Assembly (NCBI GenBank): GCA_973895155.1 | Contig: OZ316894.1 | Coordinates: forward strand, 18,700,805 to 18,764,804 | Origin: Marsupella aquatica | Lineage: Eukaryota; Plantae; Marchantiophyta | Direction: 5' to 3' | Length of the DNA: 64,000 nt | Shown here: piece by piece, positions 11,703-35,566 of the stretch | Layout of the letters: each line of letters begins with the position of its first letter | Numbering within the stretch: position 1 is the first letter of the stretch | Program-made: the position numbers and the translations under genes | Notes under the pieces: generated by a model | What the model saw: the letters and a program-made list of their open reading frames with translations, nothing else | Databases searched by the model: none | Told to the model about the DNA's origin: nothing

Positions 11703-11728
11703 TACGGTGTTTGAAATGTTGCGGGGAG
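11703..11728 (+). repeat. Left terminal inverted repeat of the IS3EU-like element
   Basis: 23/26 match to the reverse complement of 35230-35255. A further GAAAAGAGTCT..AAAGAGAG subterminal match lies at ~11770 and ~35200-35220. Confidence 0.85.
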
Positions 11729-12769
11729 AAAATCTGCTAAAAAGTTGAACCGAGAAAAAATATCTGCGGAAAAGAGTCTGAAAAGAGAGGATTCGGAACT
11801 GGAAAGATAAAGGGAGAAAAACAGAATTACATAACTAGTAATGCGTAAAAATAATCAAATGGGTCACTACAAAGTGTAATTATAATTTTTCTTCTCAAAC
11901 ACAACATTGGAAAAAATTGGAAATAATATAAGGTGAGAAATATTTGAAGCATTCAATAATGAGTAAAAAATTCAAAATATTCTACAGAGAAAATTAATTT
12001 TGAGATATTGGAGAAAGTAAAAGGTTTTACTCCAAATGATAGTTAGGGGAATAACAAAATGGAGCATTTTGAAGGGAGAACAAATTTCACGGAAAAAATA
12101 CCTTCTCCCGAAAAAGTCACCCCAAAAAACAATGCACATCCAGAAAAAATAACACACCAAATATACACCACCACCAAGGTTTTATTTTATTTTAGAGAAC
12201 TAAAAAATAGTTTTCATTCTCAAGAGAGAAACATGCAATAGTTTTCAAGCGGGAGTTTTTTTTGGCGGGGAAGTGATTCATTGATCAAACTACTGTACAC
12301 ATTGAAAAACCAATTATCCAATTTCTAAATAGGGAATAAATAGGAACTAATTAAAACTCAGGCACTTAAATGCTTAACAAAATGCCCAGATGACTATATG
12401 AACTTAACTCATTTTATTAAAAAAATAACTTTTATTCTGGTAAGGATAATGTGGTCTATCGCTATCTATCTGTGTTTCTTGGAACCCCCTTCACATCAAA
12501 CCCTCATGATACTTTGTTCATACTACCCTGGTCCGTTGACACTTTAATTCATAACTAATTGATAAATAAGTTAGTTTTGTAAACATTAACCTTAACCACA
12601 TTTTATGACTAACCATCACCATAGAAAAAAAGGCTTAACTAAGGCTTCAACATACTTGCTCCACAACAACAACAGTTCAAGGAAAGGTAGAACCACCAAA
12701 GTCAGGACCAATTTGCGATCACAAGGTCGGTCATGCTGTGTCTCTTAAAAAATACACAAGAAACTATCA

Positions 12770-15060
12770 GCATTTATTATTTGGCAATTTCTTTCAAAGG
12801 GGTCCAGACTAGAGTAAATACCAACACTGTTTAGAAATACAAACAACTTGACCACATTTGGGTATCACTCTATGGTGTAAATACACAAAGAAAATATGAC
12901 GATTTGTTTCTCAGCATTTTATTAAGACAATGGTCCACAGGTAGCGTAAATGGGAAGAGCACAACAAAAATGCAAAGGACTTGAATTGACCTGCACCACC
13001 ACACAATTGGCCAAAGAAATGTCAAACTGACAGCAAACTGGGAGCAAATTTGGAATCACCAAGGCCCACTAAATCTAGGGTGTAAAAAGTTATGTTAATT
13101 TGCTTCTTGACATTTTTTTGAAAGAAAGATCCAAAGCTAAGGTAAATGGGAAGCTCATATTAACCAAAATACAAATGACTTTCTCCCCTACACAACTGAC
13201 TTATGAAAAATGAAACCAATAAAGTGAGAGCACATTTCAAATCACAACATCAAGCTTAGCCTAAGGGGTAAATACACAAAGAAATCATGTGAATTTGTTT
13301 CTTGGCATTTTTCTTAGACAAGGCTCCAAAGTTAAGTGGGGTAAATGGAAGGATCATCACCAAAATACAAAGAACGTGAACAAACTTGCTCCCTCACATA
13401 GCTAACTAAGGAAAAATGAAATCAACGAAGGGAGGACTGATTTTGATTCACATTATGAGGCTCAGCATGAGGTGTAAATGCAAAAAAAAAAACCATGAGC
13501 ATTTGTTTCTTGGCATTTTTCTATGACAAAAGCCCAAAGTCAAGTAGGGTAAATGGGAGAACCATAACACAAATACCAAGGACTTAAATAAGCGAGCTCC
13601 ATCCCACAATTGCCCAAGAAAATGTGCAACCAGCAAAATAAAAGTGGGTTTGAGATCACCAAACCAGACTCAGTCAAAGGTGTAAATAAATGGAGAAATT
13701 ATGTGAATTAGTATCTTGACATTTCTAACAAGGCTCCAAAGCTAGGGTAAATGGGAAGATCAAAATGAAAAATAATACAAAGGATAAGAACAAACTTGTT
13801 CCCCCACACAACTGACTAAAGAACAAAAATGAAAATCAACAATTTTGATTCACAATATGAGGCTCAGCCTAAGGTTTAAATACAAAAACAAATAATGAAC
13901 ATTTGTGTTTTGGCATTTCCCTAATCTGACAAGAGTCCAAAGTCAAATAGGGTAAATTATAGGAGAACTATAACACAATTAACAAGGACTTGAACAAACT
14001 CACTCCATTCCATGACTTAGCAAGAAAATCTGTAACCAGCAAAATGAGAGTGGATTTGGAATCACAGGACCAGGCTCAATCAAGGGTGTAAATAAATGGA
14101 AAAATTAGGTGGATTTGTATTTTGACATTTACTTGAAACAAGGTTCCAAAGCTAGGGTAAATGAGAGCATCATAACCAAATTACAAAGGAGTTGAACAAA
14201 CTTGCTCCCTCACACAAATGGCTAAGGAAAAATGAAACTAACAAAGTGAGCAGATATCTGATCACAATATAATTAGTCTGAGCATATGGTGAAAAGCACA
14301 AATAAATTTTGAGGATTTGTGTCTTGGCATTTTCTTAAAATAACGGTCAAAGTTAGGGTTAAATGGGAAGACCATGACAAGTATACAAAGGACTTGGACC
14401 GACTTGGTGCACCACATAACTGGCCAAGAAAATGCTGAACCAGCAAAGTGAGAGTGGATTTGGAATGACCCAAGCCAGGCTCAGTCTACTAAGGGTGTAA
14501 ATACTCAACAAAATTATGGGGATTTGTATCTTGGGATTTTGCTCAATCAAGGTCTAAAGGTAGGGTAAATGAGAAGATCATATCCAGAATACAAAGGATG
14601 AGAACAAACTTGATCCACCACACAACTAACCAAGAAAATTTCAAACCAGCAATGTGACAGGCAGATTATGAATGAAAATACCATGCTTAGTCCAGGGTGT
14701 GAACTTGTGGCAAAATTATGAGGATTTGACGCTTGGCATTTTGAGACAAGGGTCTAAAGGACAATAAGCTCTCCTGGAGCAAATATAGAAATGACTTGAA
14801 TACTCTTGCTCCACTACAGAAGTGACTTAAAAAAGGTGAAACCAACAAAGTGAGATCTTGTCCAATGACAACAATCATTGTAAATGGAGGTTGTACAACA
14901 TAAACAAGTTATGAGGATCTGGTTTCTTCAAACAAGCTAGGTTGGGTCTAAAGCAAATTTGGAATCAAAATACCAGGCATGCTTAGTCTTGCAAAAATCA
15001 AGGATTTAATTATTGGCATTTTCAGATAAGGGTCCAAAGCTAGGTTAAATACTAGGATGA
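12770..15060. repeat. Degenerate ~200-bp tandem array (~10-11 copies) inside the left arm of the transposon
   Basis: GGTAAATGGGAAG-like anchor recurs at ~12946, 13141, 13340, 13548, 13746, 13951, 14156, 14359 and 14565, with shared AAGGACTTGAACAAACTTGCTCC and ATTTGTTTCTTGGCATTTT blocks. Confidence 0.85.
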
Positions 15061-15189
15061 GAGCAAAATTATGGGCTCAAAACATGAACAAGTATCTCTT
15101 AAGCCAATAGACTAGAAAATCACTTCTTCGAATATTGCTAAAGCCTCAAGAAGAAGTGTTTGTGTCACTGGTAAACTATTACATTACCT

Positions 15190-17077
15190 CACATATTGTG
15201 TCAATCATATAATCTGTAATGTTTGTTGCAAGGATCTTAAGGCCCATAATCTACCATCTGACAAATTAGGTAGCCCTAATTCATTTTGTACATAGTCCTC
15301 CAAGTCCAATGAAGCGTCCATACTATTTTGACACTCTATAGAAAGAAGAAGATGCATTCACAATTTGTCTTTTGCAGTTGTGACTGTCACTTGGTTCCTT
15401 TCATATGCAATATCCCGAATGTATTGTAGATTCTGCAAAAGAAATAAAACATGAATAAGGGCATATAAACAAAAGTATTTCTTACATCATCATTTCATAA
15501 TTCACATGAACATTAATCATAATACAAAACAATGCTTACTTCATCATTCAAATTGTTTATGCGATCTTCAAAGTTTCCACGATCATTGTTGTGATTCCAA
15601 TAATCAATTCCCATTGGATCGATGATGTCATCTTCTTGTTCGATATCCACCTGAGCTTCTTCGGCATAAGGTGGAGGCTGAATAATTCTAGCTTCTCTTT
15701 CTCGTGATTGAAATGCAAGTTCTGGAATATGTGATGGTCTCAACATACCTCCAGTCCGCACAACTCTCACAGTATATGCATTCCATGTTAAAACCACATC
15801 ATTTACAGCCTCTTGCAGTAAAGGAAGAATCACAGTAACCATACAATATCTATGAAGTGGAATATCAATTTGTAAAAATCCTTCCACACATAATAAGTCA
15901 TATAAAGTCTTCTTGAAGTGATTAGTTCCTTTTTGTTTCATGTAGTTCCAAAATGCCTCAATTCTCTGCCAAAACATATGATAGGATACAAATATAAGTA
16001 CCTGCACAAAATTGATTTCAAATTTCCAAGCTGCAATCGATGACATGAAATATGAAATGAACCACTCTATATGTTCTTGTTAATCAGAAATATTACCTGA
16101 TTATGAACATAAGACCCCTGCGAAAACAATTTGTATTTGGTCTTGCTCTTTCAAGGTTTCTTCTTACCAAAACATGCTCTGTTGCATAATCAGAACGAAT
16201 CATCAATGGATGACCAAATCTAAGTATGGTTGTCTTATATCCCACATATAGAGTCTAAGCTTTCTTGTTCAATGCCACATGCATCCATGGAACAAAGTGT
16301 GTAGCCCCATCAATTGCACCATGAATTCTGAATCCCCATTGCGTCAATTTATCATATGCTGCATTCAATTTCCAAACAATCTATTAGTATTGAGGATCTA
16401 TTCTAAAGTTAACTTCAATATAAAAGCAGGAAAAATTTAGAAGAGACATAGATGTTCTACTTACAATCCATATGCCACAGATGCATTGGCTCAATTACAT
16501 CATAAAATCTCCTTATGATGCATCTTCGTGCCCTTCCTTCAAGTACACCAGGAAGTAATGTGTCCAAAGCATTTCTGACAAGTGCTAGTGAGATTTTATA
16601 ACCAGCCTTTTTTAAACTTGCTCTAACAAAACATATTCCCCAATCTTCAGCATATCCATGGATTGGTATAATCTCGGTAATAAGAGAGCAAACATCTTCT
16701 AAAGTATATCGGGGATATATTCTATGCTCAATATCAAAGTTTTTGAGGCATTTCCATAGAGTCACTTTATGTACGCCAAGTGCATCTGCACATTCATTCA
16801 TAGTGTACCCTAGGTTGAGAGCTCTTTTTACATCTGTATACTGTTGAAAATTTGGATCATTCATATTGATTGTCCAGCGTGGGTTGAGTATAGATTATAC
16901 TCCACAGTTTTATCAACTAACAACTTTAACACCTGCAACCATATACAAATACAAATAACAGTAGTCACTCAATTTTTGTTTTCTACAGCAATGGACTATT
17001 GCTCTTGTAAGCTTGGCCCCAACACTGCCTGTTCATAAATAATTGTTGATGATTCCCAATTTGGAAGCAGATGACAT
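15190..17077 (-). pseudogene. DDE integrase-core transposase (IS3EU type) with N-terminal HTH, spliced and inactivated
   Basis: Exons read ..CADALGVHKVTLWKCL..RRFYDVIEPMHLWHMD|SYDKLTQWGFRIHGAIDGATHF..HPLMIRSDYATEH..GSYVHNQ|RIEAFW..LPLLQEAVNDVVLTWNAYTVR..P. Catalytic D, D and E are present. There is an in-frame TAG at 16255-16257, a frameshift at ~16120 and further stops near both ends. Outer limits are approximate. Confidence 0.88.
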
Positions 17078-17257
17078 TTTCAAAATTTTCATTGACTTTC
17101 TTGAACCTATTAAAAGATCACAAGTCATATTACAGCCACAAGGGATATATAACCATTATAATCAAATTCACCATAATAATAAATTTAAAAATAGACCAAA
17201 AGAAAACCCGTGTAGCTAATCTCAGTGTATCATAAAATTTATTTAATTACTTTCACC

Positions 17258-19438
17258 TTAAAACTCATAAGCATTGCCAAGTTTTTGGTTTACGGCAATT
17301 CCAACTACATATACTGGTTTCATTGGTGGACTTCTATACGATGTAGCATGAGGATCTTGACCCCGAACAAAAAATAAATCTCCATCTAAAATTGAAATTT
17401 TTAATTCCATATTTTAGCATCACTAAATCTCCACCTCTACTTTCATTCGATGGATTACATGCCATGAACATTGTAAACTCTCTTTCATCTACATCTATAT
17501 GAACTTCATTGCAATAGTCCTTTGTGATGAATAAAGGATATGCAGGAATGGCTTTTATCATGAGTTCAGGCTTTGAAAAACAAGCCAAAAGCTCACTGCT
17601 AAGTTCCATCATTGGAGGCATAATCTCAATAAAACTCTCCACCACTGGCCAAAAGTGTTCACAGAAAAGAACAAAAAGAATTTCAAACAGTAATCGATGT
17701 GCACATTGCTCATAGAGCAATTCTAATTGAACCATAGTAGGATCCTGTGTTTGTGATATCTTCAACTTATTACGGTAGAAGCTCACAAAATGATTACCTT
17801 TCCCTTCTCGCCACTTCACTAATGGGCCAATTGCCCTCATGACATTTTTCAATGCAGATCGTGTATCTGACCTCTTCACTGTATATTTATCATTCCATAT
17901 TTCTTCCACAAACAACTGAACAAAAGATCTATCTTTCTCTAGAACACCTCCTTTCATCCGACCTCCAATGATTTCATCACCATCCATCCAAATCTCCACT
18001 CTTGATGAAATATCATCTTGTAGAAAGGCTTGATCATCGGTCTCCAAACTATAATTTGATTTGCCCAAGGTGTTTCCAAATCTTCCTCAATCAAATAGCT
18101 GGAGGAAAATTTACCAACAAAATTGGAAGATTTCTTGGTGAAATTTGTAAACTTTATACGGGATTTTCCAAATTTCTAGTAATAAATGATCTTTCTTACT
18201 TTTAAGATACATGTCTAGATCAGTTCGGAACTTCTATATACGATCTAATAAGCCTCTCCCAACAGATGATAGATTGTAACGATTCATTATCATATGAATG
18301 ATGCTACTCCATTCTTTTTCATCAAACCAAGCAATCCAACTTCCATCTCTTCTTAAACTGTGAAAACTATCAAAAAAGGTTGACTGATTTCCTTTTAGGT
18401 TTCCCTCGGATAATATCTGTACACCATATTCAAAAAGATAGTATTCGCCCAACAACCACTTACATAGAATTTTTGTATGAAAATGACCTGCTTTCCCGCC
18501 AGCTTTTTGAGCAAGCTTGGTGATTTCACAGAAATAAAGAGATGCTGCAGAGAACCTCTCGGAAGATACCTTCACTATTTTTTTGCCCTATAAAAGAAAA
18601 AAGAGTTTCATCTTAAATTTGCAGTAAAAATAACAAATATAAACCTACGATGAGTATCAAATATGCTAAACATTTTGGACACAAAACACAGCCATAGAAT
18701 ATAGACTGTATCGGCCACCGAATAATGAGGTTTCTTCCACTATACGGGAAGTCACGCCCCCCCCCCCATAGGTCAACTATCAATATATTCACCTGACAAT
18801 GAATTGGACTCACAAAATGTGTACTGGTTTCAAATATATTCCAAACATTTTCTGATCTCAAAGTATATTAGTAGTGAGAAAATATCTTACCTTTAGAATT
18901 GGAGTCTCACTTTTTTTCTTTTTTTTTGTCTTTCAATCCTTCCATATTGAGTAACCTGTAAAATGATTTAAATTCTCAATGATTTGTCAAACTATGTGCA
19001 ATAGAAAGACTATCACCTAGGAAAAAGCTTAAATTTAGAATGAATTCTTGTCATCCCAGTTCAAAAATTATGTTGGACGGCAAGCAGCCACATTCAAAGC
19101 TAACATTAGCCCACCATACAAAATGTGAATCGCAAAGATTTCTCCTATGGTAGTATGTAACATACCTAAAAATTGAAGATACGGTGTATCAGGTAGGGTG
19201 TCATCCAGTGCACGAACTTAGCAATGGGAGACTTGATTTTAGAGTCAACGCTGCATTTGTAAAAGCGACTTGTAATAGACAGGGCATAATGAGGTCATGG
19301 ACAAACAAACTCAAATAACACAACCTAATCCAAAGAGATAAATTCAGAAAGCCTTATTTCACTTACAAATCTTTCTCCGTTGAAGATTGTGAATAGAACA
19401 TCCACATCAACAATGGTGGTGGTCTTGTCAAACGCCAT
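17258..19438 (-). pseudogene. 2OG-Fe(II) dioxygenase, TET/JBP-like, three exons, degraded
   Basis: Exon 1 MAFDKTTTIVDVDVLFTIFNGERF|GT (ATG 19438), exon 2 VTQYGRIERQKKKKKSETPILK|GT, exon 3 from 18587. C-terminal domain reads ITKDYCNEVHIDVDEREFTMFMACNPSNESRGGDLVMLKYGIK, then after removing 1 nt in the T5 run at 17398-17402, ISILDGDLFFVRGQDPHATSYRSPPMKPVYVVGIAVNQK..* (17258). This gives an HxD...H triad in a DSBH pattern. Lesions: TAG at 18234 and frameshifts at ~18030-18170. Confidence 0.7.
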
Positions 19439-19499
19439 GGTGATCGGGAGATTGAAATCGATAGTATTGGGCCTAAGGAAACCTGTGACTCTCTCAGAT

Positions 19500-20047
19500 T
19501 TTCTAGGGCAGCATTCTCATGATGAAATGCACTCAACTTTGCCAGAAAATGACACCTAAAAAAAGCTGCAAGTTGCTCAAATTTTGTAGGGCAACATTTG
19601 CTTCACAGAATGCACTCAAACTTTGTCAGATCTTAGAAGAAAGAGTCACAATTGTGCTGGCAAAGTTTCAGGGAAAACCGAGCTCAGAATCGAAACTGAA
19701 AAAAACAAAACGATCAAGAGATACAAACTCGATAAAATTTGACCTAAAAAAAGTTGCGAGTTGCTCAAATTTTGTAGGGCAACATTTGCTTCAAAGAATC
19801 CACTCAAACTTTGCCAGATCTTAGAAGAAAGAGTCACGACTGTGTTGGCAAAGTTTCAGGGAAAACTGAGCTCAGAATCAAAACTGAAAAACAAAATGAT
19901 CAAGAGATATGAAATCGACAAAATTTGACTTATAAAAAGCTGCGAGTTGCTCAAATTTTGTAGGGCAACATTTGTTGCATGGAATGCACTCAAACTTTGC
20001 CAGATTTTGGAAGAAAGAGCCACGACTATGTTGGCAAAGTTTCAGGG
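19500..20047. repeat. ~188-bp tandem array upstream of the dioxygenase gene, interrupted by the nested insertion and resuming at ~23907-24010
   Basis: AAAAAG(C/T)TGC(A/G)AGTTGCTCAAATTTTGTAGGGCAACATTTG at ~19560, 19748 and 19935. The unit's CAGGG^AAA junction is split at 20047/23907. Confidence 0.9.
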
Positions 20048-23000
20048 TGTCGCGTCCCTAACCTGGGCCTTAAATCCAGTTTAGTGCCATGGCGCAACCT
20101 CGACCACCAGTAGGGGTGAGGGTTTGGGCAAGGAGGTGTGTAGTGGCCCCGATTAGCCCTAAGTCGGGCTAAGCCGATATACTTACTGGTATAACACTTA
20201 AGCAATTCGTACTAGTCATAGGTATCTTTTATTTTCCACCGCTGGAATCCTCCCTCAGTTAGTGACTCGGACTAACTCCCGGCTTGGGGCTTTTCAAGCC
20301 ATCGACGCGACAGAACCTTGTGACATACAATGGGTGGCAATCCCTACCATTAGTCCGCACCCGGTACGTCCCTTAAAATGGTGCCTTTGCCCAGACAAAG
20401 CATACTCACAACACCAGTTACCTGCGGAAACATTAGAGGGAAAAGACTATATTTACTCAACGAAGCATCAGTTTACATGGTTGACTCGACTTCAAAGGGG
20501 GTCAGCAGGCCCAACGGCAGTCGATGCCCAGTCTCTACGAGGCCCCGCCTCGCACTTGCCCAACAAGCTTGACTCTAGCTCTCACTCCTTGGTGCGCTCT
20601 GACCCTGCTCAGGCCAGGACTCCCCGTGCCTCACCTTTCTTCTGCTGAGATAACTAAGCCTTCTCCCCCTTCCATAGCGGAAGGGGAAGCCTAAATACTA
20701 TAGTTTGCGGAATAGAACCGGAGGATACTACCTTCCGGGATACTACCTACTGACTAACTACCTTCTGACTACTGGCCGTGCCGCACTAACTGGTTGATCG
20801 TCGACGACAAGGGTGCCGACCGGGATGGCAGCGGCCAAGCCTACTGACAAAAATCTAGTCCGTTGATGGACTCCATCCTACGTTGGCTGATCCTGACTGA
20901 TCCGGCCCTAATTCTTCCTACTACCACTAATCGGCGCCTAATGACAGCTATTCTGTCGTTACACCTAACCAAAAGATGCCGCTGACTTAACTACCTCGCG
21001 CGGCGCCTATTTCCACCCTTCGCTAACCACCCCTTACGTGTGTGTTGTGGTTGGACCAGGGCTGGTCCCCTTGTCGGGGCGAGACCTCGAGCCACCTTGA
21101 TCAAAGGTGGGCCCAGGTTTTCCCCGCTGGAGGACGAGCAGGGTAACACGGTCCTGCCAGGCCTTGTTGTCCCACACCGCCTCCTCCGCCTCGTTTGCAG
21201 CTTCATCGGCCTCGGTCTGGAGCCGCGCTACCTCCAGGTTGAGCTGGTTAATGGAGTCGCGATGGATCTGGTCCTGCGCCAGCAATTTATCCCGTTCGGC
21301 GGAGAGACTAGCCACCTGTTGTGTTGCCTACAAGAATTGTTTGTTGAGGTCGGTCAGGCTGGTAACCCAAGCCGAAGATTCTGAGCGTAATTGAAGCACG
21401 GTGTCGTCCAACTTCTTGAGATCTCCTTGCGCTCCGCTTAACTCCTGGGTTAGTCCGTCCCTCTGTTCGACGGTGTGGACTAACTCCTCGCGGCGGGTAG
21501 TGGCCTCCTCCTCGAGGTGCTCTACCAGCATCTGGAGGCGCCCGATCTCATTCCCCTTCGCCATGAGTTCTTCTTCCAAGCGGCTTATGATCCGTGGTTG
21601 GTGCTCTAATATGAAGAAGGTTGGTTGAAAGTACGCCGAGACTTGTTGTCCGATGTACGTCGCCAGCTCCCTAGAGATAGTCTGGCTAAACTTCTGGACC
21701 AGGTCGTAGGCCATGGTCCCCGGGGGCTACTTGGTAGTCCTCCATCCTCTCGGGTACCAGTGGTTCCTCGGGCGGGGCAACGAGCTCCTCCGTAGTCTGT
21801 GCTGGGGAGGGGAAGGTTTCTTTAGGTGGTGGAGGGATTGGGGGTGGTTATACTGCGGGCAGCGGAGGCTCGACGGAAGGGGGCGGCAGAATTTCCACAG
21901 GAGGAGGTGGCAAAGTATTAGTCTGGGCTTCCGGCTCAGGGTTTGCCCGAGGGACGGTAGTCCGCGCGCTCGGGGTTGCCTCCTCTGGGTGGGGGTGACA
22001 TTAGTCGGGGCTGAGGTGGCCATATTCTTTCCTCTGGTCTCCCGCCGTGCCTTGTAGTAGGCAAGGATAATGGCGATATGACTTCCCAAGTAAGTCTTCC
22101 CCCCAATAGCCACACCACACTGAGCCCGCTTCAGCTCCCCCGAGAATCTTCGGTAGAAGAATTAATTGGGCCCAGTTCCGCCGTTTGTACTGTTCCACCT
22201 GCACGATCGTGCAGAGGGAAATCTCGGATCGTGGCTCAATCATGTGTAGGGTAATCCGTATGAAGTTAAGACGCTCCATGCAGATTAAGTTGGTGCACGA
22301 CCCCTGCTTGTATCCGTTGTCCGTCTTACCCTCGGGTTTGAAGTGCCGCGGTGTATACTCCTTATCCCGAATTCGGAGTTCAACCGACACTGGCCCGGTT
22401 GGCAGGCAGAAGATTTGCGTTAACCGATGCTCCGTGAGTGATAAGGCCTGCCCCAAAACCTTGGTGGTCGATGCGTCAATGTCAAAATTGGAGATGAACT
22501 CACAAATCTCCTTCGGCCCGGCGGCGCACGGCCTCCATAGCAAGTGAGCGAACTGCTCCAACTGATGCTCCTTGAGATAGTTCGCGTGTTCGAGTTTCTT
22601 GATCGCGATCCAGACTACTTTGGGGGCGCGGATTACCTGTAATAAGTTGGACTTCGGGTTATTCGGGGGCCGTCGGGTCTGGTTGGCCGGGGGGTTTGCC
22701 GGGGCAGGTGCAGGCACGGCGTTGGTTTGCGTTGTTGATTCAGGGGCCATCGTCGTCCTTGGTCGCTTACGAGAACGTTGTTTGAGTTGCGGACTAACTC
22801 GCTCGGAACCCGAAGAACACTTTGTGTTGATCACTGGACGGACTTGGGACCGGTTCGGCGGTACGCCGGTGGTCATCGGCTCAGGCACTGGTGGTATCGG
22901 GGTAGCCATATCCCAGTTGAAGGCATTGGAGCTTTCCCCGAGGAACGTAAGATTACGCGCCGCTTCCCGTTGTCTGCTGATGTCTTCTTGACACTTTTCG

Positions 23001-23906
23001 GACGTGATCTGCTGGTCTAGGTACCCCGGAATCTTGTCAAACTCCGCTTGAGTAAGCCGTTGGCTGCCCTTCAGCTTAAAAAACTTTGCTGGGACTTCAT
23101 GAATCGCCTCTGCTACCGATCTAAGCCCTTCCTCGCTGAGATATAGTTCGGTGATGTAGTCTCACAACTCGTTGTAGCTGGAATCCCTGGTGATGGCTGT
23201 CCTTTCGCAATTAACCAGTGCTACCTTGGTCACCAGCTTCGCGTATCTTCGTTCGTAAGTGGCTTTCTCGGGACAAGAGTACCAGTAAGTCTCGGAGAAC
23301 TTAGCACCTTCCTCGCCAAACAAGGTCCAGAATCCCAAGGCTGTAAGGGTCATACTAACCTCGTAGTCCGGTTCGTTGAGTCCACGTTCCCACCCGGCTG
23401 GTCCTTTTGCTCGTGGAGGCCTCGCTCGTCCTGACTAAATCTTGCCACATTCCGCTCTTATCCCTCGATAATCTCCTTGTAAAGGTCGACTTGATTCGAT
23501 CAGAAAGGTGAGTGGATGGCAACGTCCGCAAATTCCAAAAAGGTGGAAATGAGCAAATGGCCCGCAGCGCCATCGGCTCCTCTCTTATGGAGGTGCCAGG
23601 GTGAGCCCGAGCGTGAGAAGGCCAGGCCATTTTGGTCATTGATAATGAGCTGAAGTCGGCGCCTCGGTCCAAGCATGATTCTTCTAACTGATTTTTACTC
23701 CGCTGCCGCCACCGTACCTCGGTCGTGCGTAATAATCCTCTTCCTGAACTCGTAATCATTCGGTCATCTTAACCTACTCCTAATCTATTCATAATGGCAA
23801 TAGACGACTATACGTGCTATTCTACGCTACGGCTACGGTCCTAACGTCCGTATAAGACCTAATCTACGACCTGGGTTCAGTTAAGTGACACGTTACCCGT
23901 GTCACA
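20048..23906. mobile_element. Solo-LTR-like insertion 1 (3859 bp, TG...CA, 5-bp TSD) carrying a long ORF
   Basis: Begins TGTCGCG and ends GTCACA. CAGGG is duplicated at 20043-20047 and 23907-23911. GC-rich against AT-rich flanks. No internal terminal direct repeat and no RT/integrase motifs seen. Confidence 0.85.
20991..23759 (-). pseudogene. Degraded long ORF of insertion 1: plant-transposon-protein-like domain plus coiled coil
   Basis: ORF pieces 23355-23759, 23162-23353 (reads through TGA in frame into 22001-22909), 21328-21714 and 21034-21315. Contains EFISNFDIDASTTKVLGQALSLTEHRLTQIFCLPTG and a C-terminal coiled coil. Homologous to 37747-41397. Confidence 0.7.
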
Positions 23907-26900
23907 CAGGGAAAGCTTAGAATCAAAATTTGACTTAAGAAACACTACGACTCCTAAATTTTATACGACTACATGTGCATTGATAAAATTGACTAAAAAT
24001 TTCCAAGATTATTGAGCAAATAATGCCAACTCTTCTGGAAAATATTCAAGAACAACTGACCTTAGCATCCATATTGAAAAATATGGAGCATGGATCATTA
24101 AAATCCAGTAAACCATAAAAAACCAAACACAATATTGAAGGCAAAAAATAGACTTTAGAAGTATGTAGTAAAGTCATGTTTAGTTGGCATTATGGAATAT
24201 GACCAAAAAATGAGAGCTTTAGCTTGCATTTGGAGGGGTTGTTTCCCTAATGGTTTGGCAAATAAAACCTTATTATATTGAAAGGCTTGAGAGATTTTAT
24301 TTTTTCTTGATTTAGTGAAAGTAATGGACAATCTTACTCAAGAGGTGATCCGGATCTTGTGGTGGGCATTATGCTCCAAGAATGTCCTGAAAAATACAAA
24401 TGGAAAACTTGCAAAGGGCATTAAGAAAGGAATATTTTGGATGGATCTTACCTTGAATCAAAAGCACGTGAACTGTGATTAGATAGAGAAGACTCCACTA
24501 AAGACATGCATAAATTCTGAATAAACGAGCGACCATGAAATAATTCTAGACTTTCCTTTTGAGCCCTGGTACACTATCTAGCTTTAGGATGTTACATGGC
24601 TGATAGATTAATTAGCTCTGGTGAAAAAACAATGAAACTGCCCCCAAGGCCTTGTACCCTAACATAGTGAGCAATACATTCATTGAGAAAGACAAGTTTG
24701 AAATACAAAAGGAGGGAAGAAGTTGAAGGAGGAAGAATAGTGCTTGGAGGAATTCTCAAGTTGTAACTTTGTTATGCATGTGGACCTAGAAAAGCGATGG
24801 ATATAACACTAAATGTTGTGATTAGATATAGTGTTGGTATACAAATAATTCAAACACTATTTCACAAGTGTACATGAAAAAATGTGTAGTCTAAATTAGA
24901 TTGCATGAAATGGGTGTAAGGTATACTGATGTCTTGCAACTAAAGTCTACTTCTGCTATTTATATGACTTCCTTAGGACTCACCTACCATGGTCACATGA
25001 GTGACTTTTTGACTAGTCACTAACATTTACATGATTCAGTTTTTGACTAGTCACTATCATGTCTTTATGTAATCTATAAAAATCTTGGGATTAAATCTCT
25101 TGTAATTAGCATGACACCTATAGGCCACTAACAACTGAAGTATTTCCAGGTCACTTATAATTCAAAAATAGATATTTCTCTTAGTGTCATTTTAGCCAAT
25201 GGTTCCCCATTGCTTCCTTGCTTCCCAGCTTGCATGTTTTACTAGTTAATCCATTATAATATTTCCAAGGGCAACTACACTCTTTACAGTATGTAGTCTC
25301 ACAGACTCTAATTACTGTGAGGTTATATTTGAGGTAAGTGATGGTAATTAGGGTGTGTGACACTAATATAGTATGACACTAATTGTGGTCACAAGTCAAA
25401 TAGTGTCACACATACTTAAAGTTTTAAAAAAAGAATGGACAATAGGTAAAATTTGCTTATAAAAAAGCTTAAAATGTGCACAATATTTGATTACAATTTA
25501 CAAAACTTACTACTCATTCAAGCATTGAGAAAACTTAAGAAACTTATAACTCCTTTCATATACTACTCAAATATTGAGCAAACTTCAGAAATTTATAACT
25601 CCTCCTCACATTTGCAGTTTGGGGTACTCTTGAAACACATTGAGCAAACAAGATCTCTTTGATTCACTTTAATCAACTATGAATAGTAGATGTTGTCTCA
25701 CATAAGCTACAAACTAACATTTTTTTCACTCTCCTACAATCTGTCCCATGTGTCTCATCCTTGCAAGACATTGTACAGCCCCAAGAGAAGAGGGTTGAGC
25801 TGGCTCTTCACCTGGGTCACCAATATCAGGAGCCACTTCAACAGTAGCATCAATGTCAAGGCCAACTTGATTCCTTTAAAACTTCACTCGATATTTCATT
25901 ATGATATTCTGAAGCTCAGGTGTAAGTTGATTTTCAGACTATAAACCATTGACATTTAGAGACAAAGTGGTATTTATCATTGAATTTTGTGCATAAGACA
26001 TGTCATGTCTGTCAACAGAACTGTTCACCTCAGCTACAAAGTCCCTTGCCAATGTCAAAAATCAATGTTTGCCTTCATGTTTGCCTGGATTTATCAATTT
26101 CCCAGATGTGCCCTGTGTCCCAATCCATCTATTAGTAGGAGGAATTGCCAAATAATATAAGTAGCAGGATTTGTTTGTAACTTGCAGGAGTGATTTAATA
26201 TTCCTACTAAATTCACCAAAAACTGGCTTGGGTGAGGGGGCAAATTGCCAGATCTAAGAGTATAAGGGTAGCCATTAGCTTTGTCATGTTATCTCAAGTC
26301 ATCAAGCCATTCCCTTTGTCATCTCAAGCTATCTAAAACGTACCATCTACAACTTACTGCGGTTACCAGTGCTTGGAAACCCAACAGTTTGTTTTTACTT
26401 TATCAAATATTTATTACAAAACTTTGGAAACCCAACAATTTGTTACTTCACCAAATACTTATTACAAAATCTTGGAAGCCCAACAGTTTGTTTCTACTTC
26501 CTCTAGCAGTGTTTATTTAAAAATCTTTTAAAATTAGAAAAAATCTAACATTTAATGCAAAACACTGATATATCAATTCTAGTTATTGCCTTGTTTACTA
26601 TCAAACTTTCTATTGGAATTTGGCACCAAAAAATATGTATCATTTGTGCACATGAACCAATCATATTCTTCACACTAGTTTTTCCAACCTTCACCTCGGG
26701 AATAAGTTACGATGCCCACTCTTCACCATTGACAAGTCAAATCCAACAAACATAATTGTTTGGTGACATGTAAAGTTCTTAAGGTTTTATAATTGAGGAC
26801 CTTAATAATCGACACAATTTTAAAATACTTATTTCTTTCATGCATGTCTCTAACTTTGAATAGTTTGGAGTGTACTACTAGCTACAATACTATAGTTTAC

Positions 26901-27320
26901 AATAGTTCAATCATCTTACATGCGTTACATGCGTAGCAGTGTCTTTCTAAAGAAAATAAGAAATGCGGTAACCCGCTTTTGGCAATTATGTATCCGAGGG
27001 CTAAAAAGAGCTGCTAAAAAGAGCTGTGGTAGCTAGTCTTCATTATGATGAGATGATTGTTAACAAATATGATATGTACTGGAAGTTAATGTGATACTAA
27101 TGTTCACCAAATTCTTGAAATGGCGGCTGTACTCTAACAACATCTATTACTTTCTGCTCATAATATAAGATAATTTGTACTACTCGGTGATATCTACCTT
27201 TGATCGAGCTTGACACTTTGCACTCTGTTCGCAAAAGTAGTAATGAACTAGAGCAGAGCCTCAGGTTCTTGGCCATTTGGATCTTGGGTTTCAATCTTGC
27301 GTTGAATTCAGAATTGCAAT

Positions 27321-30300
27321 ATGGATGAACCTACTGATAGTCGAGATCCTCGTCAGAGAAACCCTGTCCAAGGATACAACAGAAATTCGAGGATGATCCC
27401 ACTAGGAACTAGTACACAATCGGGTCCTCGGGAAACTACTGAGCCAGTGACACTTCCACTATATGAATTTCCAACATTCCCAGCCTCGTATCACCAATAC
27501 AATTATCAACCTGAAGGAGAATCTGGATGTGGATCAAATAGATGTGGAGGTGGAGGAAATAGAGGTGGAGGTGGGGCAAACAGAGGAAGGAGACAGATGA
27601 TTGCGAGACCTCCTCCAATAATTTGCAATCGAAGGAATTATGATAAACCAGTGAGTCGTGCTATATATTGTCCTCAACAAATTTGGGAGGCACAACAAGT
27701 GGACACAGGCAATCAGAGTTGCTACATGCAAAGAGTGAAAAAATTCAGGCCTCCAACATATGTTAGTCTACCTGGGTCAACGCCTTGGGGTGGTGTCTAT
27801 GATGGAGGTCAATTCCGGGAAAATACTGCTCAGTGGCATATTCGGGAAATTGTGGCATCTCAAGAATGGGCCCAAAATACTGGTTCCGCTGACATATCAG
27901 GATGCTTTTTGAGAATGACAAATGTTGGGCAACACAAAGACGACCTGGACAAACTAGGTGGTGCAACACTAGATTCATATTTTCTATCGGGGGACACCGA
28001 ATGGAGAAACGTGTCTCGGTTTGATAAAGTAGTATACATTCCAGACCCCTCTTGTCAAATGACGCCACAACAAATAAGACATTACCATGTTGAGGCGGCT
28101 GGTTGTTCAGGTGCAATAATTATTGTGCCTTCACAAGGAACACGTCGACGTAAACGAGATACCGGACAAAATATCCATGGTCACTCGACTGCACGTTCAG
28201 GTAAAGCAAGCAAACATTTTTGTCATCATTGTTACTAGATTCTTAGATTATGACATTTTTCTGCTCTTTCCCAGCAAGTCTTTGGATATGATTTGCATAT
28301 TAATTGAAACTTTTGTCTATTCAGAAGATTCCCCAACGACAGAGCATCGTCAGGCATTTGAAAATGAAACAGAACATGCGCAAAGTCCTTCACAGTCATG
28401 GAATTCTAACACTCAAAGAGAGAGCTCAAACTTGAGCTTTGTAGCTTCTGAGTCTGAAGGGATTGAGGAGACAGAAAACTTGCACGACCCCACAATAACT
28501 TTGACAGGTAAGGATATCAACTTCATTTGTCTTGATCGATGCACAAGTAATATTGAGTAACAGGTAAATCATTTCTAGCTCCATTGATGTGAAAAATACA
28601 CCATGAAGCTTTATGGATTATATAGTGTAGCTTCTATGTAATTGATCGAATTAGGTATCTAATTGCTTATTGCATTGTTCTGGTTTGAAGCCCTGCAAAA
28701 TCTGTCAAGAAGATCCTCTAATTTGTCATCTCCATTAACGAGCTCGTCACCTCAATTGGGAAACCCTTCGACTTCTGAGTTTCAAACCCAGCCCAATGAC
28801 AGCTCACCTTCACCCCATGGTGACTCTTAAGTACATGCATCCTTTGAGTTTCCTTGGCCATAGATCACTTTAGTTTAATAATTATTCAATTTCTTACATG
28901 TTAGCATGGGTGGGGGTTAGTTTGTAGGTGTACGTATGAAATTAGTATTGCACAGCATGCATATGTAAGATCTATGAAAGCATGTTCTGAATGAGGCTAT
29001 GGGCTGCAAATGATTGCTCTTCTTGGTTGTGCATTTTGTACCGCATCCCCTCAATTTTTGACCAACATGGTTTTTGTTGTGCGCTTCTGGTGGTGTTCTG
29101 TTTGTCTGCCTTGTTGTGGGCAGTCCTTTTGTTTATCTGTCAACACCTTGCCAATAGATTTTTGGAGATGCTTTTTCTTTGAAACTACAGTGGAATGACC
29201 CTATCAATCCAACGCACTCCAACAGGTCAATGGCCCTCTTCTCTCCATATTACTCTCACTTACAGCACTGACTCCAGAATGAGCCTTACTGAAACCAAAC
29301 TCCTAGTGACTGTGATGGAATCACTGCAAGTGGAATACTTGATGCTCATTACCAGGTAATCATGGCCCCAGGACGCAACCCTCGAATTGACATCCACTGA
29401 CCCTGCTGATCAAGGTTGGTTGTTGGCCATTTTGAGAAAAGCACTTCCTATGACCCTGGAGTTATAGGTGACATGATTCCAAACAAACTCCAGTAGATAT
29501 GGAGCAGAGACAGGTGGGGTGATTGATGCTCCAAAGCTTACTTGTGGTATGCAAGATGAGCCCCAATCCTGCTTCAGGTGTTTCCTTCTTTTGCATTTTA
29601 GTGCAACAAAACAATTCACTGATGAAAGCATTGGGGAATCTTGAAAGTTTGGCCACTTCAAGATCGACTACCGACCAATGAGTTTTTTATTGCAAGCGTG
29701 TTGAAGCAAGTTTGTACATGTTTTCTTAGCTCAAGAGGAAGACCCTTAGTACACACTTCAAACCGTAGCAGCCATGGTATTTTCCATCAACGCTGATTAG
29801 TATGAGGAACAAATGGAGTGTCTAGCATCATAGGCTTGTGTGCAGCCAGCCAAAGCTTTGAAGCAAAAAACATTCTTTAGTTCTGCTGAGTAAAATGAAA
29901 TCATATCGCACTCATCACAGTTCTGATCATAATGTACACCTGCATTTAGGAGAGTAGAGTAATTAAATGGTAAATCATTGGCATACTAAGTCATCGGTCT
30001 TTTGGTCAACTTTTGTATAAGGAATTTTCAAGACATTATTTTGCTTTTCTCAGCCTGCTAATTATTGCTCTATTGCTCTCCATTAGATGCTCTGGTCTCT
30101 TCATGTGGATTCCCTTGCCTGACCTCATACAACTTTTGTAAAGTTTCTATATATCTAAGTCTTGAGTTACAGTTATGGCCGAAGCTCAATCTGGATACCA
30201 AGCTTTGAGATGCTTTACTGTAGTATGTAAGACTTTTCAAGATGTCTACAGTAAGGCAATAGTAGGTTAACAATGCTGCCATGAAATCATAATATATATT

Positions 30301-33300
30301 AAAAAGGGTATAGAGTGGCTATGTGAGTGAAAGCAATCTGACAATCCAACCCTAATGTGAACATTGGGTAATTGTGAAACATGATACAGGTGCATTATTA
30401 CTGCCAACTTTACCTTTACGAGCTCATTCATTTCAAACTTCAAGAACCAGAGGTGTTTTGAACGAAGCTATACCTGCACAAGGAGCCCTAGTCTTTGGAT
30501 CTTCAAGACATGAGAATGAAGTAAGCCTTGTAGGGACTGTTCATAGTCCCATCATATTGGAAAATGAAGAGGTTATTGAAAGACAATCAAGATTACAGTT
30601 ACAAAGAGGTAAGTGAAAATGTCAGAATTGTGTGTTAATTAGGGTTCAGGATTTAGAGTTAAGGATTTTGATTCGGGTTTGGATTGATTCTTATAATATG
30701 TAGGCTTGAGTGGATGGTTGAATATTTTTAGAACTATTTTGTGATTGTACAGGCACACCCGAGAATGATCGATTTGAGGATGATCTTATAACAAGTGAGA
30801 CAGAGACGTTTGCCCTGCTAGATGCGTATTGTGCAGCACAAGAGCGGCTTCAAAAATTGGATGAAAGCATAAAGTTGCCTGTGGATCAAGCACCAAATCA
30901 AGCCATGGCAATCTTTTGGGAAAATTTTGATGCCGTTTTAGTAGAGGAACACAATAAAATGGATGCTACAGTTGCTTGTGCAGATCTGGAATTCCTTCAA
31001 CATCGAAGAGAAGCAAAATTGGGATTATCAGATGCAATGCTGGAAGATTTTGTTACACCAGTGTTAAATGGTTTAGAAGGCCTAAGTTCGTATACCAAGT
31101 ATGACTTTGGATACTATTTTGAGGCAGCAGCCATTCCAAGGTGGCACATGTGGGAAAATTGCAAAAACTCATACCCGATCTTGTTCCTGAGTTTGTTCAA
31201 AACGATTTGGACAGATCATTACAAATCTTCAGGTAATTAATGGTTGACATGTTTATTTCAGTGTTCATTTTAATCAGATGTAGTGAGCTGAATGCATTCC
31301 ATTATGATTTTTGTAAATTTAAAGTGAATAGTTTTCATTGTTGAATTTAACAACATACTGTGGATTGTTGAGCATTATTCAGAGATTATTTGCTTACTCC
31401 ATCATACGGGAAAGGGAAATTTTCAGAAGCCCGCATTATCTCTCTGCGCGACGAATACATTGCATGGATTGGAAAATGTCAGCTTGAAGAACCAACGCTT
31501 ACAAGTTGTGAAAATATGTACATTGAAGCCAAAAAAGAAACTGAAAGGACAAAATACTTGTTAAGGGTCCATCAGATTTCTGACATTGGACTTTCTCACT
31601 TTCGGAAACTCTATAGGCAGGTTCCACAAATTCGAATTCAGGTAATGTAGAAACAAAAGAAACCCAGTCTTGAAAATGTTCGTACTTATCTATAGACTTG
31701 TTGTATTTAATGTCATTTTGCATTTAAGTTTATACATCTAAATAACTTTATTTTGTCTGTGCAGTTTTATGACGGTGATGAGTTAACTGCTATTCGAAAG
31801 ATGTGCCAAGAAGCCTTGAGAAGACAAGAGATATTTGGAGATTTTGCAGCAAAGTTAATCTACACAACACATAGTGGAGAAGTAACACTGGAGGAATCTG
31901 AAACTGTAGATGCAGGGGGTGTCACAAGTCGATTGTTGACAGGGGCTTGGAAGACTCTGTTTAGTGGAAGTGCAATAAGTTTTCTTGATCATGAATCAAT
32001 AATTTTGTTCAAAACTAGCTAGTCCGAGGACTAGTCATGCAATTCAACCTTGAATCATAATTAACATATTTATGCAATGCAAGAATTCTATGCAGTTTTC
32101 ACAGAGGGATGTGGCGGGCTTCATCATCTTAATTCCAAAAAACAATTTACAAAAATCTCCAAGAAAGATGTAAGTCATAAATAACAATGTAAAGTTTTTA
32201 AAATATTATTCAATTGTAGTGTTCCAGACTGTTTCAATGGTTTATATCATTGCTTCAATTTTTTTAATGTTATTGACTAGGTTTTTACTTGTCATATTCC
32301 ATCAGGTTCAACTTGTTGGTCAACTCATGTTTCTTCTCATATTGAAAAAGAACAAGTTCATCGTCCAATCACAATGGCCACAATTGCTCATGCCATGGGT
32401 AAATGTCCCTCCCGTGAAGATATTTACATGCAAGTGCAACAAGAAAAAACAAAACGATCAATTTATATAGAAGATTTTCGAGTTGTTCGACCAACATGGT
32501 ATGTAAATGTACCTAGTGGGAACCATGCACTTTGTTGTTATACATTATTTCTATGATATTATTGTCTTCTCATTTTATACTGTGATCTTAATTTTATAGG
32601 TAATGATCAAACTAATTTTTTATTGCAGGTATGGTTTCATGCAGTCTTTGATTAATGCTCCAGAAGAATCAAGAGAGGGTCTCATTGACAGCATGGAGGA
32701 TATAATGCCTGAATATTATTGCAGGGTTGTAACACTTGACCCAAACTGGTCAACTGAAGCATTTCAGAAAGCAACTACAAAATTGTATGCAGATATCATA
32801 TATGAGACTCTATTTGGAGCTTGCAGCCTGGTTGGTGCACTACTTCATGACGGATTCTTCTCATTGGCGAAGACTGTGATGGCATCTCCCTTCATTAACG
32901 AGGCTGAAAAGAAGCTTGTGTTGACAAGTATATTTAAAGACATCTCTGTGAAAGCCATGCCAGCATTTTTCAGTGCGCAACAAGGAATCACAAATAGAGA
33001 GTTTTTGTCAAGGGTCAGATATTCAATAGATTTTCCACCAGCATTGAAAGACTTATTTCAAGAAGCAATTGGTCAATTTTCTGGTGTTGAAACCTATAGA
33101 TTATATAGGTTTATTACAGATGAGAAATACAATGCAGGTACAATATGTCATGTGAATTTTAGCCCTAGTCAACCTTCGAGCTCTTTGCCTATTGCATCCA
33201 CCTGTTCTAAACAAATTGATATTCCTGCATATCCAAATGTGGAAGTGATGCACTCCAAGTTGGTCATGGCTAGTTTCAACACCGCCTACGGCAAGTTATA

Positions 33301-33301
33301 A
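27321..33301 (+). CDS. Transposon-borne HECT-domain E3 ubiquitin ligase-like protein, ~10 exons
   Basis: Approximate exons: 27321-28200, 28325-28507, 28691-28819, 30390-30608, 30753-31232, 31383-31641, 31775-31970, 32095-32169, 32281-32498, 32629-33301. HECT N-lobe motif ESETVDAGGVTSRLL. C-lobe RLYRFIT..LPIASTCSKQIDIPAYPNVEVMHSKLVMASFNTAYGKL* with catalytic Cys (33203-33205) and an aromatic residue at -4. Two junctions are not cleanly resolved. Confidence 0.8.
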
Positions 33302-34198
33302 GGATTATTATCTTCTGATAAGATTCAACAAAGGTAATTTTTCAACCGTTGCATGTGTTAATTGTATTGTGGAAACTCGTATTGTTTTTTCTCAGTATCA
33401 TTAATGTGAATATATTTCATGTTGTTTTTTCAGGATTTTCAGGCTATACACTCTGCAAGAGACGATAGAAATGCAATGGCTTGGAAGGATCACAGAAGAA
33501 AACATTGTTGGATACCGGATAGCCTCCAATAGTTATTTTTTATCTAGCTTGCTAATCATCAAGAATTAGTATTTAAGGCAAAAATTACTTATCTTTGAGT
33601 TTGGAAGCAACACAATGTACTTTTGATTTTAAGTAATGTGATTGAGAGTTCATTTCAAAGTTGACAGAAATTGCTATTTATTAATCTATCTTGTGTAATG
33701 GTTGGTAAAGACTTTGGACTGTTCAAACTTCACAATAATGTCTCTATCATAGCCTGAATGGAACTGATCATTTTGAATCCCAAAACTTCTACCAAAGAGG
33801 CAGTTCAAAATATTTTTGACACATTAGTAAATATATTAACGTTCCATTGAAAGTAGTGGCACAAGAGTGTTTTTGTAGAACCTGCAAAGAAATACACTGT
33901 CAGCTCTTACAACCTTGAGGAGTACTTGCAGTTTCATCATGATTCAACAAGAAAGGCACTTCTAAGGCCAATATTGTCCAAAAGACGAGCATTGCAGGAT
34001 GCACAGACATAAACATTTTCATCATGATTCAACAAGAAAGACACTTTTAAGCCCAATACTATCCTGTGCTTGGATGCCCAATATTTTCCAATCCAAAAGA
34101 CAAGCATTGAAGGATGCAGAGGTATAAAGGACTTGTAGACCTATATAATTAGTAACTTTAAGCATGTCAACATTTGGGGGTAATTGTTTGTTCAGCAG

Positions 34199-34671
34199 TC
34201 AACACCAGGCCTCTAGTTGCTCCATAACATCTCTAATTTTGCCATTGAGGGATGCACGATTTGTCCTTTGAGGATCCCACCCACCTCAGAATGATATACT
34301 CCCTATCTCAATTAGAGTGGACTAATAAATTTCATAAAAATAGAAGGCAAGAAGGAGGTGCTTGTCTGTTGTGATCAAGGCCCATGTCCCAATGATAGAC
34401 GAGTCAAATCCATTGGGAAGAGTAAATCCATCAATGGAGGAGTTGAACCAACATGCACACTTACTTGGCCATGGTTGAAACTCGTAGATATGGAGTAACA
34501 ACATTCTTCCCGGATGACTAACCTAATCCTTCAGGTTGGCCTCTTCTTTCCTTGAAACTTAAAAGTATTGGCTGAGTAAAGTACAAATTTTCTCCCCGTG
34601 TCTACGAGCCAACAAAAAGTACAGTTGGACAGTTGGACATTTCTGGTTGGCTTGTAGATAAGGGGAGACAT
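34199..34671 (-). pseudogene. Possible fourth passenger gene remnant, unknown product
   Basis: MSPLIYKPTRNVQLSNCTFCWLVDTGRKFVLYSANTFKF.. continues through stops and a frameshift into WFNSSIDGFTLPNGFDSSIIGTWAL..GGWDPQRTNRASLNGKIRDVMEQLEAWC*. More GC-rich than its flanks. Confidence 0.3.
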
Positions 34672-35229
34672 TTTCACTTTACGGAACCGTACAGAGAAAA
34701 AACAACTATGTAAGGAGAGAAAAAAAACATTCACACTTTTCAAGATGATTTATTTTGGTCAACTTTTTTTGCTTCTTCATTGATTTGGTATATAAATGTG
34801 TTTTACTCTCAATCTTGATTGAACGTTATGTTTTGCTCTTTGAATTTTTTTTGTTCGGTGTAGGAAATATTTTGTGAGTTTTCACTCATGAGTAGAATTC
34901 TTGTGAGTTCAAGGATTGAAAATTTTCAAAATATTGTATACAAAAATGAAGGATGAAATAGTTTTTGAATTTCAAAAAGTGGAGAAAAAATATGAATTTT
35001 GTTAGAATATTTTTAAAAAATAATTAATGTGTGAATGATTTTATGTATCACATGATAATGTTCAAAATGTTTTTGTTGAATTACTGAAGTGAGTGAGAAA
35101 TTATTTCAAATTACTTCAAACGCGTGCAAATTACACTTTAGGGTATCCTACAAAATAAGTTGGGGTATTTGTATTTTTCTTGTGAAATATTGAATATTTT
35201 CTCTCTTTAGACTCTTTTTCTGGAAAAAA

Positions 35230-35255
35230 CTCCCCGCAACATTTCGAACACTATA
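35230..35255 (-). repeat. Right terminal inverted repeat of the IS3EU-like element
   Basis: CTCCCCGCAACATTTCGAACACTATA followed by TSD copy ACCGAG. Confidence 0.85.
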
Positions 35256-35566
35256 ACCGAGTGACCCTCTCCGGTTTTGGGTTGAGCATACCAGAGGGCA
35301 AAAATTTCATATGAAAATCTCATGAATTATTTTTAAGCAAAAGCTGAACTCTAGAGACTCTGATGTAGAGTAAATAGTCTAGACTTTGACTCTTGGTGGC
35401 AACCAGTTTTGGGGTGGGCAACGGAGGCCCTGAGCAAAGCTTAAATAGTCAGGCTAGAGCAATATGATACAGGAGCGTGCTGAGAATATGAAAATATTTA
35501 ATTATATGTTAAGTGGCTGGACCGGGCCATAGTTTTCCCGGGAGACAAGTATCGATAAAACTATTG

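Follow-up and report, generated by a model that had tools for sequence, protein, structure and literature searches.

Does a land plant harbour a DNA transposon with its own TET/JBP-family dioxygenase, and could such a gene ease the silencing of the transposon by cytosine methylation? The question is raised by a locus of Marsupella aquatica (Marchantiophyta; GenBank assembly GCA_973895155.1, contig OZ316894.1), of which we analysed 64,000 nucleotides (positions 18,700,805 to 18,764,804, forward strand), called the window here and numbered from its first letter. Our analysis of the sequence indicates that window positions 11703-35255 are a decayed copy of a low-copy IS3EU/GingerRoot DNA transposon, which holds genes for a DDE transposase, a putative TET/JBP-type dioxygenase and a HECT ligase. 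The element is bounded by inverted repeats at its termini (TIRs) and by putative duplications of the target site (TSDs), and its dioxygenase has an intact homolog, P0002. Its parts are as follows (CpG o/e, observed/expected CpG ratio; LTR, long terminal repeat; aa, amino acids).

11697..11702, no strand: left TSD, ACCCAG, 5/6 identical to the right TSD
11703..11728, plus strand: left TIR, TACGG start, 23/26 match; a unique-flank contig of sequencing run X1 stops at 11732, and one of run X5 departs from the window sequence at 11703
12760..15070, no strand: array 1, ~11 diverged ~203-bp units, CpG o/e 0.10, between the left TIR and the transposase 3′ end
15513..16864, minus strand: DDE transposase of the GingerRoot/IS3EU group, with three or more exons (about 16864-16464, 16358-16097 and 15965-15540), D, D and E present
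17258..18587, minus strand: TET/JBP-family dioxygenase gene, broken; HxD...H retained, 48% identity to intact P0002
19441..24081 (19.44-20.05 kb, resuming at 23.92-24.08 kb), no strand: array 2, 186-188-bp units, between the TET and HECT genes, interrupted by the nested insert
20048..23906, minus strand: nested LTR-like insert, 3,859 bp, TGT...ACA, TSD CAGGG, high-copy
27321..33301, plus strand: HECT E3 ligase gene, multi-exon, ~1,100 aa, divergent from the transposase
35230..35255, minus strand: right TIR, ends in CTATA (family signature CCRTA), 23/26 match
35256..35261, no strand: right TSD, ACCGAG, 5/6 identical to the left TSD

Of their 26 positions, the two TIRs share 23. When the window was block-shuffled 20 times, the best inverted match of 26 nt was 20-22 and never 23; taken alone, the TIR match is barely above chance. 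Similarity extends past 26 bp at both ends (GAAAAGAGTCT..AAGAGAG), and low GC spans 11.7-35.3 kb, shifting at both ends. IS3EU and GingerRoot elements have TA..TA ends (TAYGG..CCRTA) and usually 6-bp TSDs (PMC12730594, PMC10045372; here and below, statements on these two papers, on PMC6839031 and on the preprint bioRxiv 10.1101/2022.06.16.496473 refer to the available parts of those sources). The termini TACGG...CTATA fit this signature, the right end being two CpG transitions from CCGTA.

The left end is also marked by contigs, which were aligned to window 9500-29400 and came from four of the six sequencing runs found. A 21.8-kb contig of run X1 (no differences, depth 18.6) covers the left flank and stops at 11732, 30 bases inside the element; the break would fall there because a 31-mer graph branches at this point if several flanks join the element at 11703. 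A contig of run X5, from another study, tracks the flank to 11703 and then continues for 294 letters off the stretch, making it a candidate empty site. It departs one base past the left TSD, as expected of an empty site running into the right flank, which begins with T. Independently of the TIR, the contigs thus settle the left end at exactly 11703. The 26-bp TIRs with a TAY start proposed by the first-pass annotation were upheld, while of its 6-bp TSD the hexamers are present and the match between them is imperfect.

Contig depth further showed that the element is not alone. Summed depths, which are no copy number, were 48-125 over the element without nested repeats against ~19 in the flank for X1, possibly the source sample, and 177-392 against 59 in the flank bin for X3. 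With the contig break and depths about three times that of the flank or more in both runs, several dispersed copies share the left end. Single contigs at ~3x flank depth cover the transposase (X1, 66), the dioxygenase (X3, 184) and, for the HECT gene, its 5′ part (X1, 57), and diverge from the window at ~1-3% of letters. This supports co-amplification of the three in the source species. Separately, X1 and X3 hold contigs ~86% similar to the transposase 3′ part (window 15495-16018) at single-copy depth; these represent another, older subfamily of GingerRoot within those genomes.

The transposase shows the DDE core motifs WHxD..KL, HGxIDG, RxD and HNQRIE, lacks HHCC and matches Pfam rva_4 (E 4.3e-6). 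By eye, 41 of 74 core residues are identical to those of Selaginella SL_GR-020 (Figure S1, PMC10045372). In this copy the gene is broken by a stop (~16255) and a frameshift (~16120). Metagenome contigs scanned for the motif yielded 119 IS3EU-motif loci from a sample of ~480, apparently mostly short marine-animal contigs (93 below 4 kb), and by tblastn the window transposase matches all 119, with a best identity of 34%. The IS3EU transposase motif was not found in the viral contigs scanned, and a word-index homolog search with the core exon returned nothing, a weak negative. Membership in KDZ (Kyakuja/Dileera/Zisupton transposase, 7-8-bp TSD) was considered and rejected on the integrase-type core and the 6-bp duplication. 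The IS3EU assignment thus holds on the ends, the motifs and the likeness to SL_GR-020. The accompanying remark that IS3EU is known mostly from animals and fungi goes too far, as the group is already described from lycophytes and mosses under the name GingerRoot (PMC6839031), which has been equated with IS3EU (PMC10045372).

The second gene carries the unusual part of the finding. In this copy it has one stop (~18234) and three frameshifts (~18185, ~18010 and ~17400); an upstream or N-terminal exon was looked for and none was identified, a splice acceptor being the only splice signal. The intact homolog P0002 (479 aa) is 48% identical to the window protein over 397 residues, and a full HMMER search gave 27 further hits, of which 26 were judged real and one (P0029) was dropped as a repeat artefact. 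Intact P0002 and the 26 relatives show long protein-level conservation. A structure of P0002 was modelled from a 27-row alignment (predicted local distance difference test score, pLDDT, 67.6; predicted template-modelling score 0.53); an attempt from two sequences only gave pLDDT 30. Compared by VIA-align with 48,161 chains, the model matched CMD1 first (Z 16.9, root-mean-square deviation (rmsd) 4.2, 263 residues aligned), then TET2 (Z 16.7, rmsd 4.0, 249 aligned) and NgTET1 (Z 14.2, rmsd 3.5, 206 aligned), with the remaining chains at Z 11.9 or below (CcTet 11.7). In Foldseek the rows listed to rank 21 were all CcTet, NgTET1 or CMD1 (CcTet E 5e-9), and the best named viral matches were JBP1/TET proteins. 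Compared with the rust TETs, the family has an extra N-terminal region, predicted to be helical.

The iron-binding triad is kept as well: HxD occurs in 19 of 21 rows, the two misses being misaligned fragments, and the distal His in 15/15, with HID...HAT in the window. The first Arg is retained in all nine rows that cover its site. By tblastn against phages, five of six weak matches lie in TET/JBP-type genes, two of them checked by Pfam, and 17 of 30 Atlas matches fall in Tet_JBP-bearing clusters (in the row shown, 13% of members carry the family). Sequence profiles are fainter. hhalign gave weak support toward TET/JBP (93.9%); five of 27 homologs matched PF20515 (E 0.0014-0.15) and two of 27 PF12851 (E 0.00029 and 0.13), all below the cut-off; and single-sequence phmmer reached CMD1 only at E 0.48 and 0.22. 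Against a phage TET profile P0002 scored 18.2 bits, compared with 4.2 for the best of 500 shuffles, a score that is partly circular because the phage set was chosen using P0002; the window protein scored 3.2 bits (E 1.4). No dioxygenase relatives were found in the metagenome or viral contigs searched. Taken together, model and motifs support membership of the predicted protein in the TET/JBP fold family, as first annotated. Among the relatives, P0009, P0010, P0012, P0016, P0024 and P0026 make up no fewer than three divergent subgroups (20-35% identity) within the same TET-like family that lacks the Arg.

The third gene encodes a HECT ligase (PF00632, 34.3 bits, E 2.6e-8, cut-off 23.9) that retains the catalytic Cys motif, LPIASTC, and all 30 of its Atlas matches are HECT. 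Exons 1-5 are open as one chain of 673 aa; farther on, a weak splice donor and a probable switch of frame near 32.4 kb suggest that this copy is damaged. Pfam was run on 91 open reading frames (ORFs) from the 26 IS3EU-motif metagenome loci of at least 4 kb and found HECT in eight, on the opposite strand and in every case convergent with the transposase. A profile built from those eight matches 12 of the 119 loci and, weakly (E 0.013), the window HECT. From these counts the HECT pairing appears general for IS3EU, as the first-pass annotation had it, although the divergent layout here differs. Our literature search found no paper joining IS3EU with HECT, and a word-index search with the last HECT exon, covering longer proteins only, gave nothing, again a weak negative. 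Near other IS3EU transposases of the metagenome set we noticed a UBX match (E 1.5e-4) upstream of HECT (L086:357-2021) and a deubiquitinase with ankyrin repeats (L042:6981-9648). For the locus as a whole, the gene order and strands first described are correct, with transposase and dioxygenase on the minus strand and HECT divergent on the plus strand. Splicing stands for the transposase and the HECT gene, both multi-exon, and goes no further than the acceptor for the dioxygenase. The gene content is real, but in this copy the transposase and TET genes are broken and the HECT gene probably so.

Based on these observations and on the better-studied relatives, we lean, by a modest preference, towards a reading in which intact GingerRoot copies would use the TET protein to modify 5-methylcytosine (5mC), easing silencing for long enough to transpose. 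The transposase would excise and insert the element through its TAYGG ends and leave 6-bp duplications, as family knowledge suggests. The TET protein of intact copies would likely bind iron, modify methylated cytosine and loosen host silencing, with a co-substrate pocket possibly unlike that of TET2. Relief would be partial or transient and confined to the transposition window. The HECT ligase may be an old partner of IS3EU transposases, more likely tuning a protein of the element than a host silencing factor. Protection would have been incomplete, as this copy appears to have been methylated, mutated and invaded.

Several results weigh against this reading. The structure model is of P0002 and not of the broken window protein; Pfam assigned no TET family to P0001 or P0002, and profile searches of the PDB, including one with the 27-row profile, retrieved no TET structure. 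By sequence alignment, the last strand lacks an Arg, none occurring among the ten residues that precede the conserved Asn in any of 15 rows or in the window, and the HxD+3 residue is Glu in the window and variable in the family, the register of the aromatic site being uncertain. In TET2, NgTET1 and CMD1 an Asp or Asn at HxD+3 reads the N4 of 5mC, and the last-strand Arg of TET2 and NgTET1 binds the C5 carboxylate of 2-oxoglutarate (PMC7854593). By this one defining residue the predicted cargo is not a canonical 2-oxoglutarate TET. Given the missing Arg and the variable HxD+3, 5mC as the substrate is not assured. Furthermore, the element has a CpG o/e of 0.34, compared with 0.73-0.81 for host-gene regions, and each of the three TIR mismatches is a CpG transition; this pattern shows what we read as a long methylation history, and it follows that any protection from methylation was partial.

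The same residues give the strongest of the alternatives its footing, namely that the TET-fold protein makes another modification (a CMD1-like hypermodified base, or a change to thymine or adenine) or binds modified DNA but does not oxidise it, so marking the element or its target sites instead of lifting silencing. We regard this as somewhat unlikely. CMD1, which uses ascorbate (PMC7854593), ties with TET2 at the head of the structural matches, and Kojima leaves other activities of PU-type proteins open (PMC12730594). Nevertheless, the family retains the iron triad and the first Arg, and CMD1's own effect is still lower 5mC. The Arg loss is also not special to this family, because nine of 15 rust IS3EU PU-type TETs (Table S1, PMC12730594) share it, with HxD surroundings alike by eye. 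Since the rust proteins share the HxD motif and often the Arg loss, the dioxygenase family is best termed PU-like.

Another possibility is that the dioxygenase is a recent passenger, taken from another transposon or some other source, captured once by a GingerRoot family and amplified along with it to no benefit of the element. Such capture has precedent: 22 of 77 GingerRoot elements had captured gene fragments (PMC6839031), and fungal TET genes move passively between transposon superfamilies (PMC12730594). None of the 119 IS3EU-motif metagenome loci matches the TET-family profile, and linkage of TET and transposase was not found in a second species. However, the metagenome loci are mostly short and apparently animal, and the dioxygenase spans the whole domain, has a GC content of 0.36 against 0.35 for the transposase, and is present in multiple copies in runs that carry the labels of two organisms. 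Moreover, it has the same position and orientation as in three rust IS3EU families (PMC12730594). We therefore consider a mere passenger quite unlikely. That the ends do not delimit one element, the right TIR and TSD being a chance match or the transposase-TET and HECT genes lying in separate neighbouring insertions, is highly improbable: the TIR match is one base above the best shuffle, the TSD is imperfect and HECT is divergent here yet convergent in 8/8 metagenome loci, but the low GC with its change at both ends, the similarity past the TIR, the like depth on both sides of the nested insert, the contigs that join across it and the empty-site-like X5 contig all argue for a single element.

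The reading that intact copies modify 5mC to ease silencing can be taken further. Bryophytes might hold an overlooked family of transposon-borne TET/JBP enzymes, the first in land plants, fixed in TET-HECT GingerRoots, with a non-canonical co-substrate and with an oxidised or new mark on cytosine that is directed at the ~200-bp arrays of the element itself. We judge this extended version unlikely as a whole. If true, the oxidised methylcytosines of plants would gain an enzymatic source, and plants a third way to counter silencing by methylation, next to glycosylases and VANC. If instead the enzyme is inactive or its linkage a one-off, the locus is merely a decayed GingerRoot with unusual cargo.

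The arrays were first placed, both with ~200-bp units, between the genes; this is so for the 186-188-bp array, whereas the ~203-bp array lies between the left TIR and the transposase 3′ end. Contigs in X1 and X2 omit 13003-14957, and the length of array 1 therefore varies among copies. The nested insert was rejected as a part of the element: contigs of X1 and X3 join 20047 to 23913 without it, and its depth in X1 is 6,000-8,000 against 19 in the flank (~300-400x flank). Without its 3,859 bp the element spans ~19.7 kb. The insert has no internal terminal repeat and contains a decayed minus-strand ORF (22001-23161) with coiled-coil pieces; it is possibly a very long solo LTR bearing a gene. A second higher-copy block lies at about 24800-26700 (X1 depth 208-1120, CpG o/e 0.07), and an X3 contig has 35 additional letters at 29280. 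Broken protein-like frames at 33700-34500 (Cys-rich at 34316-34498) and 28900-30390 have no Pfam match and may be remnants of other genes; scanning 23.9-27.3, 28.9-30.4 and 33.3-34.8 kb in six frames with Pfam revealed no additional gene.

In the left flank lies a COP1 gene (RING). Its WD40 exons reach 202 bits with COP1 entries 5igo/6qto and 109 bits with RFWD2 entries, which we take to be Arabidopsis COP1 and the human protein, respectively. A DNA polymerase alpha gene lies on the right side. Given these neighbours, the host is a green plant. The COP1 RING, which resembles that of Physcomitrium, and the known distribution of GingerRoot would make it a moss-like one. Fungal contamination was rejected, as the 21.8-kb X1 contig runs difference-free from the plant-gene side into the TIR and COP1 is plant-type. 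Farther to the right lies another element:

36086-45708: PIF/Harbinger-type element, with a NAM-associated-domain gene at 44437-45321 and long, unassigned ORFs at 37693-41397

Its name is presumably apt, going by the GAGCATCTCCAAC ends and the TAA duplication. Within it is a perfect 34-bp inverted repeat (42975-43071, 29-nt loop). A young 199-bp tandem array at 46040-47430, with units up to 99% alike, is unrelated to the element's arrays by blastn; one window thus contains three arrays with units of nucleosome-repeat size.

What looks new is a TET/JBP-bearing transposon in a land plant, while the pairwise links (GingerRoot in plants, TET with IS3EU, HECT with IS3EU) have precedents. Land plants are described as lacking the TET family. 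No TET/JBP gene in a land-plant or bryophyte transposon was found in our literature search, outside of which lie Iyer et al. 2009/2013/2014 and Repbase. A multi-copy TET/JBP gene beside a plant COP1 gene, together with intact P0002 and some 26 other relatives, makes TET-type activity in a land-plant lineage, and the mark that it writes, directly testable. The surveys by Iyer and colleagues may mention Physcomitrella TET/JBP genes, which would reduce the novelty.

Among known systems, the VANDAL elements of Arabidopsis, cited in PMC12730594, encode VANC, which acts through an anti-silencing mechanism. These MuDR transposons resemble the present element as plant DNA transposons with proposed anti-silencing cargo and internal tandem repeats; in contrast, their superfamily is another one, VANC does not belong to the TET enzymes, and targeting of the arrays in our element is conjecture. 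The marine metagenome loci share with it the transposase and HECT genes on opposite strands, though in the convergent arrangement. Closer in cargo is CMD1 of Chlamydomonas reinhardtii, which lowers 5mC and sits in the TIR transposon DNA-1_cRei (bioRxiv 10.1101/2022.06.16.496473), likewise a TET/JBP gene that a large TIR transposon carries in a genome of the green lineage. DNA-1_cRei differs from the element here in that its TSDs are 8 bp long, it lacks a recognised transposase and it bears a kinase, and CMD1 retains Arg410, Asp350 and Trp358, which are unmatched in our dioxygenase family by sequence alignment.

The element shares with GingerRoot the TA..TA ends, apparently the 6-bp TSD, and the integrase-like DDE core (Cerbin et al. 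2019, PMC6839031; Kojima and Bao 2023, PMC10045372), as well as a host range of bryophytes and lycophytes (PMC6839031). Published GingerRoot copies are 3.9-12.9 kb long with 100-150-bp TIRs and host gene fragments, whereas ours is larger, with a 26-bp TIR core and whole TET and HECT genes; the word 'HECT' does not occur in the main text of that paper (PMC6839031). The nearest parallel is fungal. The first-pass annotation had tied TET/JBP cargo to KDZ transposons and knew of no IS3EU-TET pair, but TET-bearing IS3EU elements are described from seven rust species and the truffle Tuber indicum (Kojima 2025, PMC12730594), so that only the land-plant case appears unreported; 'moss' and 'HECT' are not in the main text of that study, which already proposed escape from methylation silencing for such elements (PMC12730594). 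The rust elements differ in their fungal hosts, their smaller size (8.3-12.9 kb, 15 rows), an alpha-kinase in place of the HECT ligase and a TET family separate by sequence (PMC12730594). They nevertheless share the TAYGG..CCRTA ends, the PU-like motif T-x-D/N-Y/F-x-N-x-x-H-x-D-x-D and, apparently, the 6-bp TSD. In rusts and truffle the TET gene has, as here, the transposase on one side and a third gene of opposite orientation on the other, and in three rust families it is also oriented like the transposase (PMC12730594). The locus thus extends to plants the fungal pattern of TET-bearing IS3EU elements.

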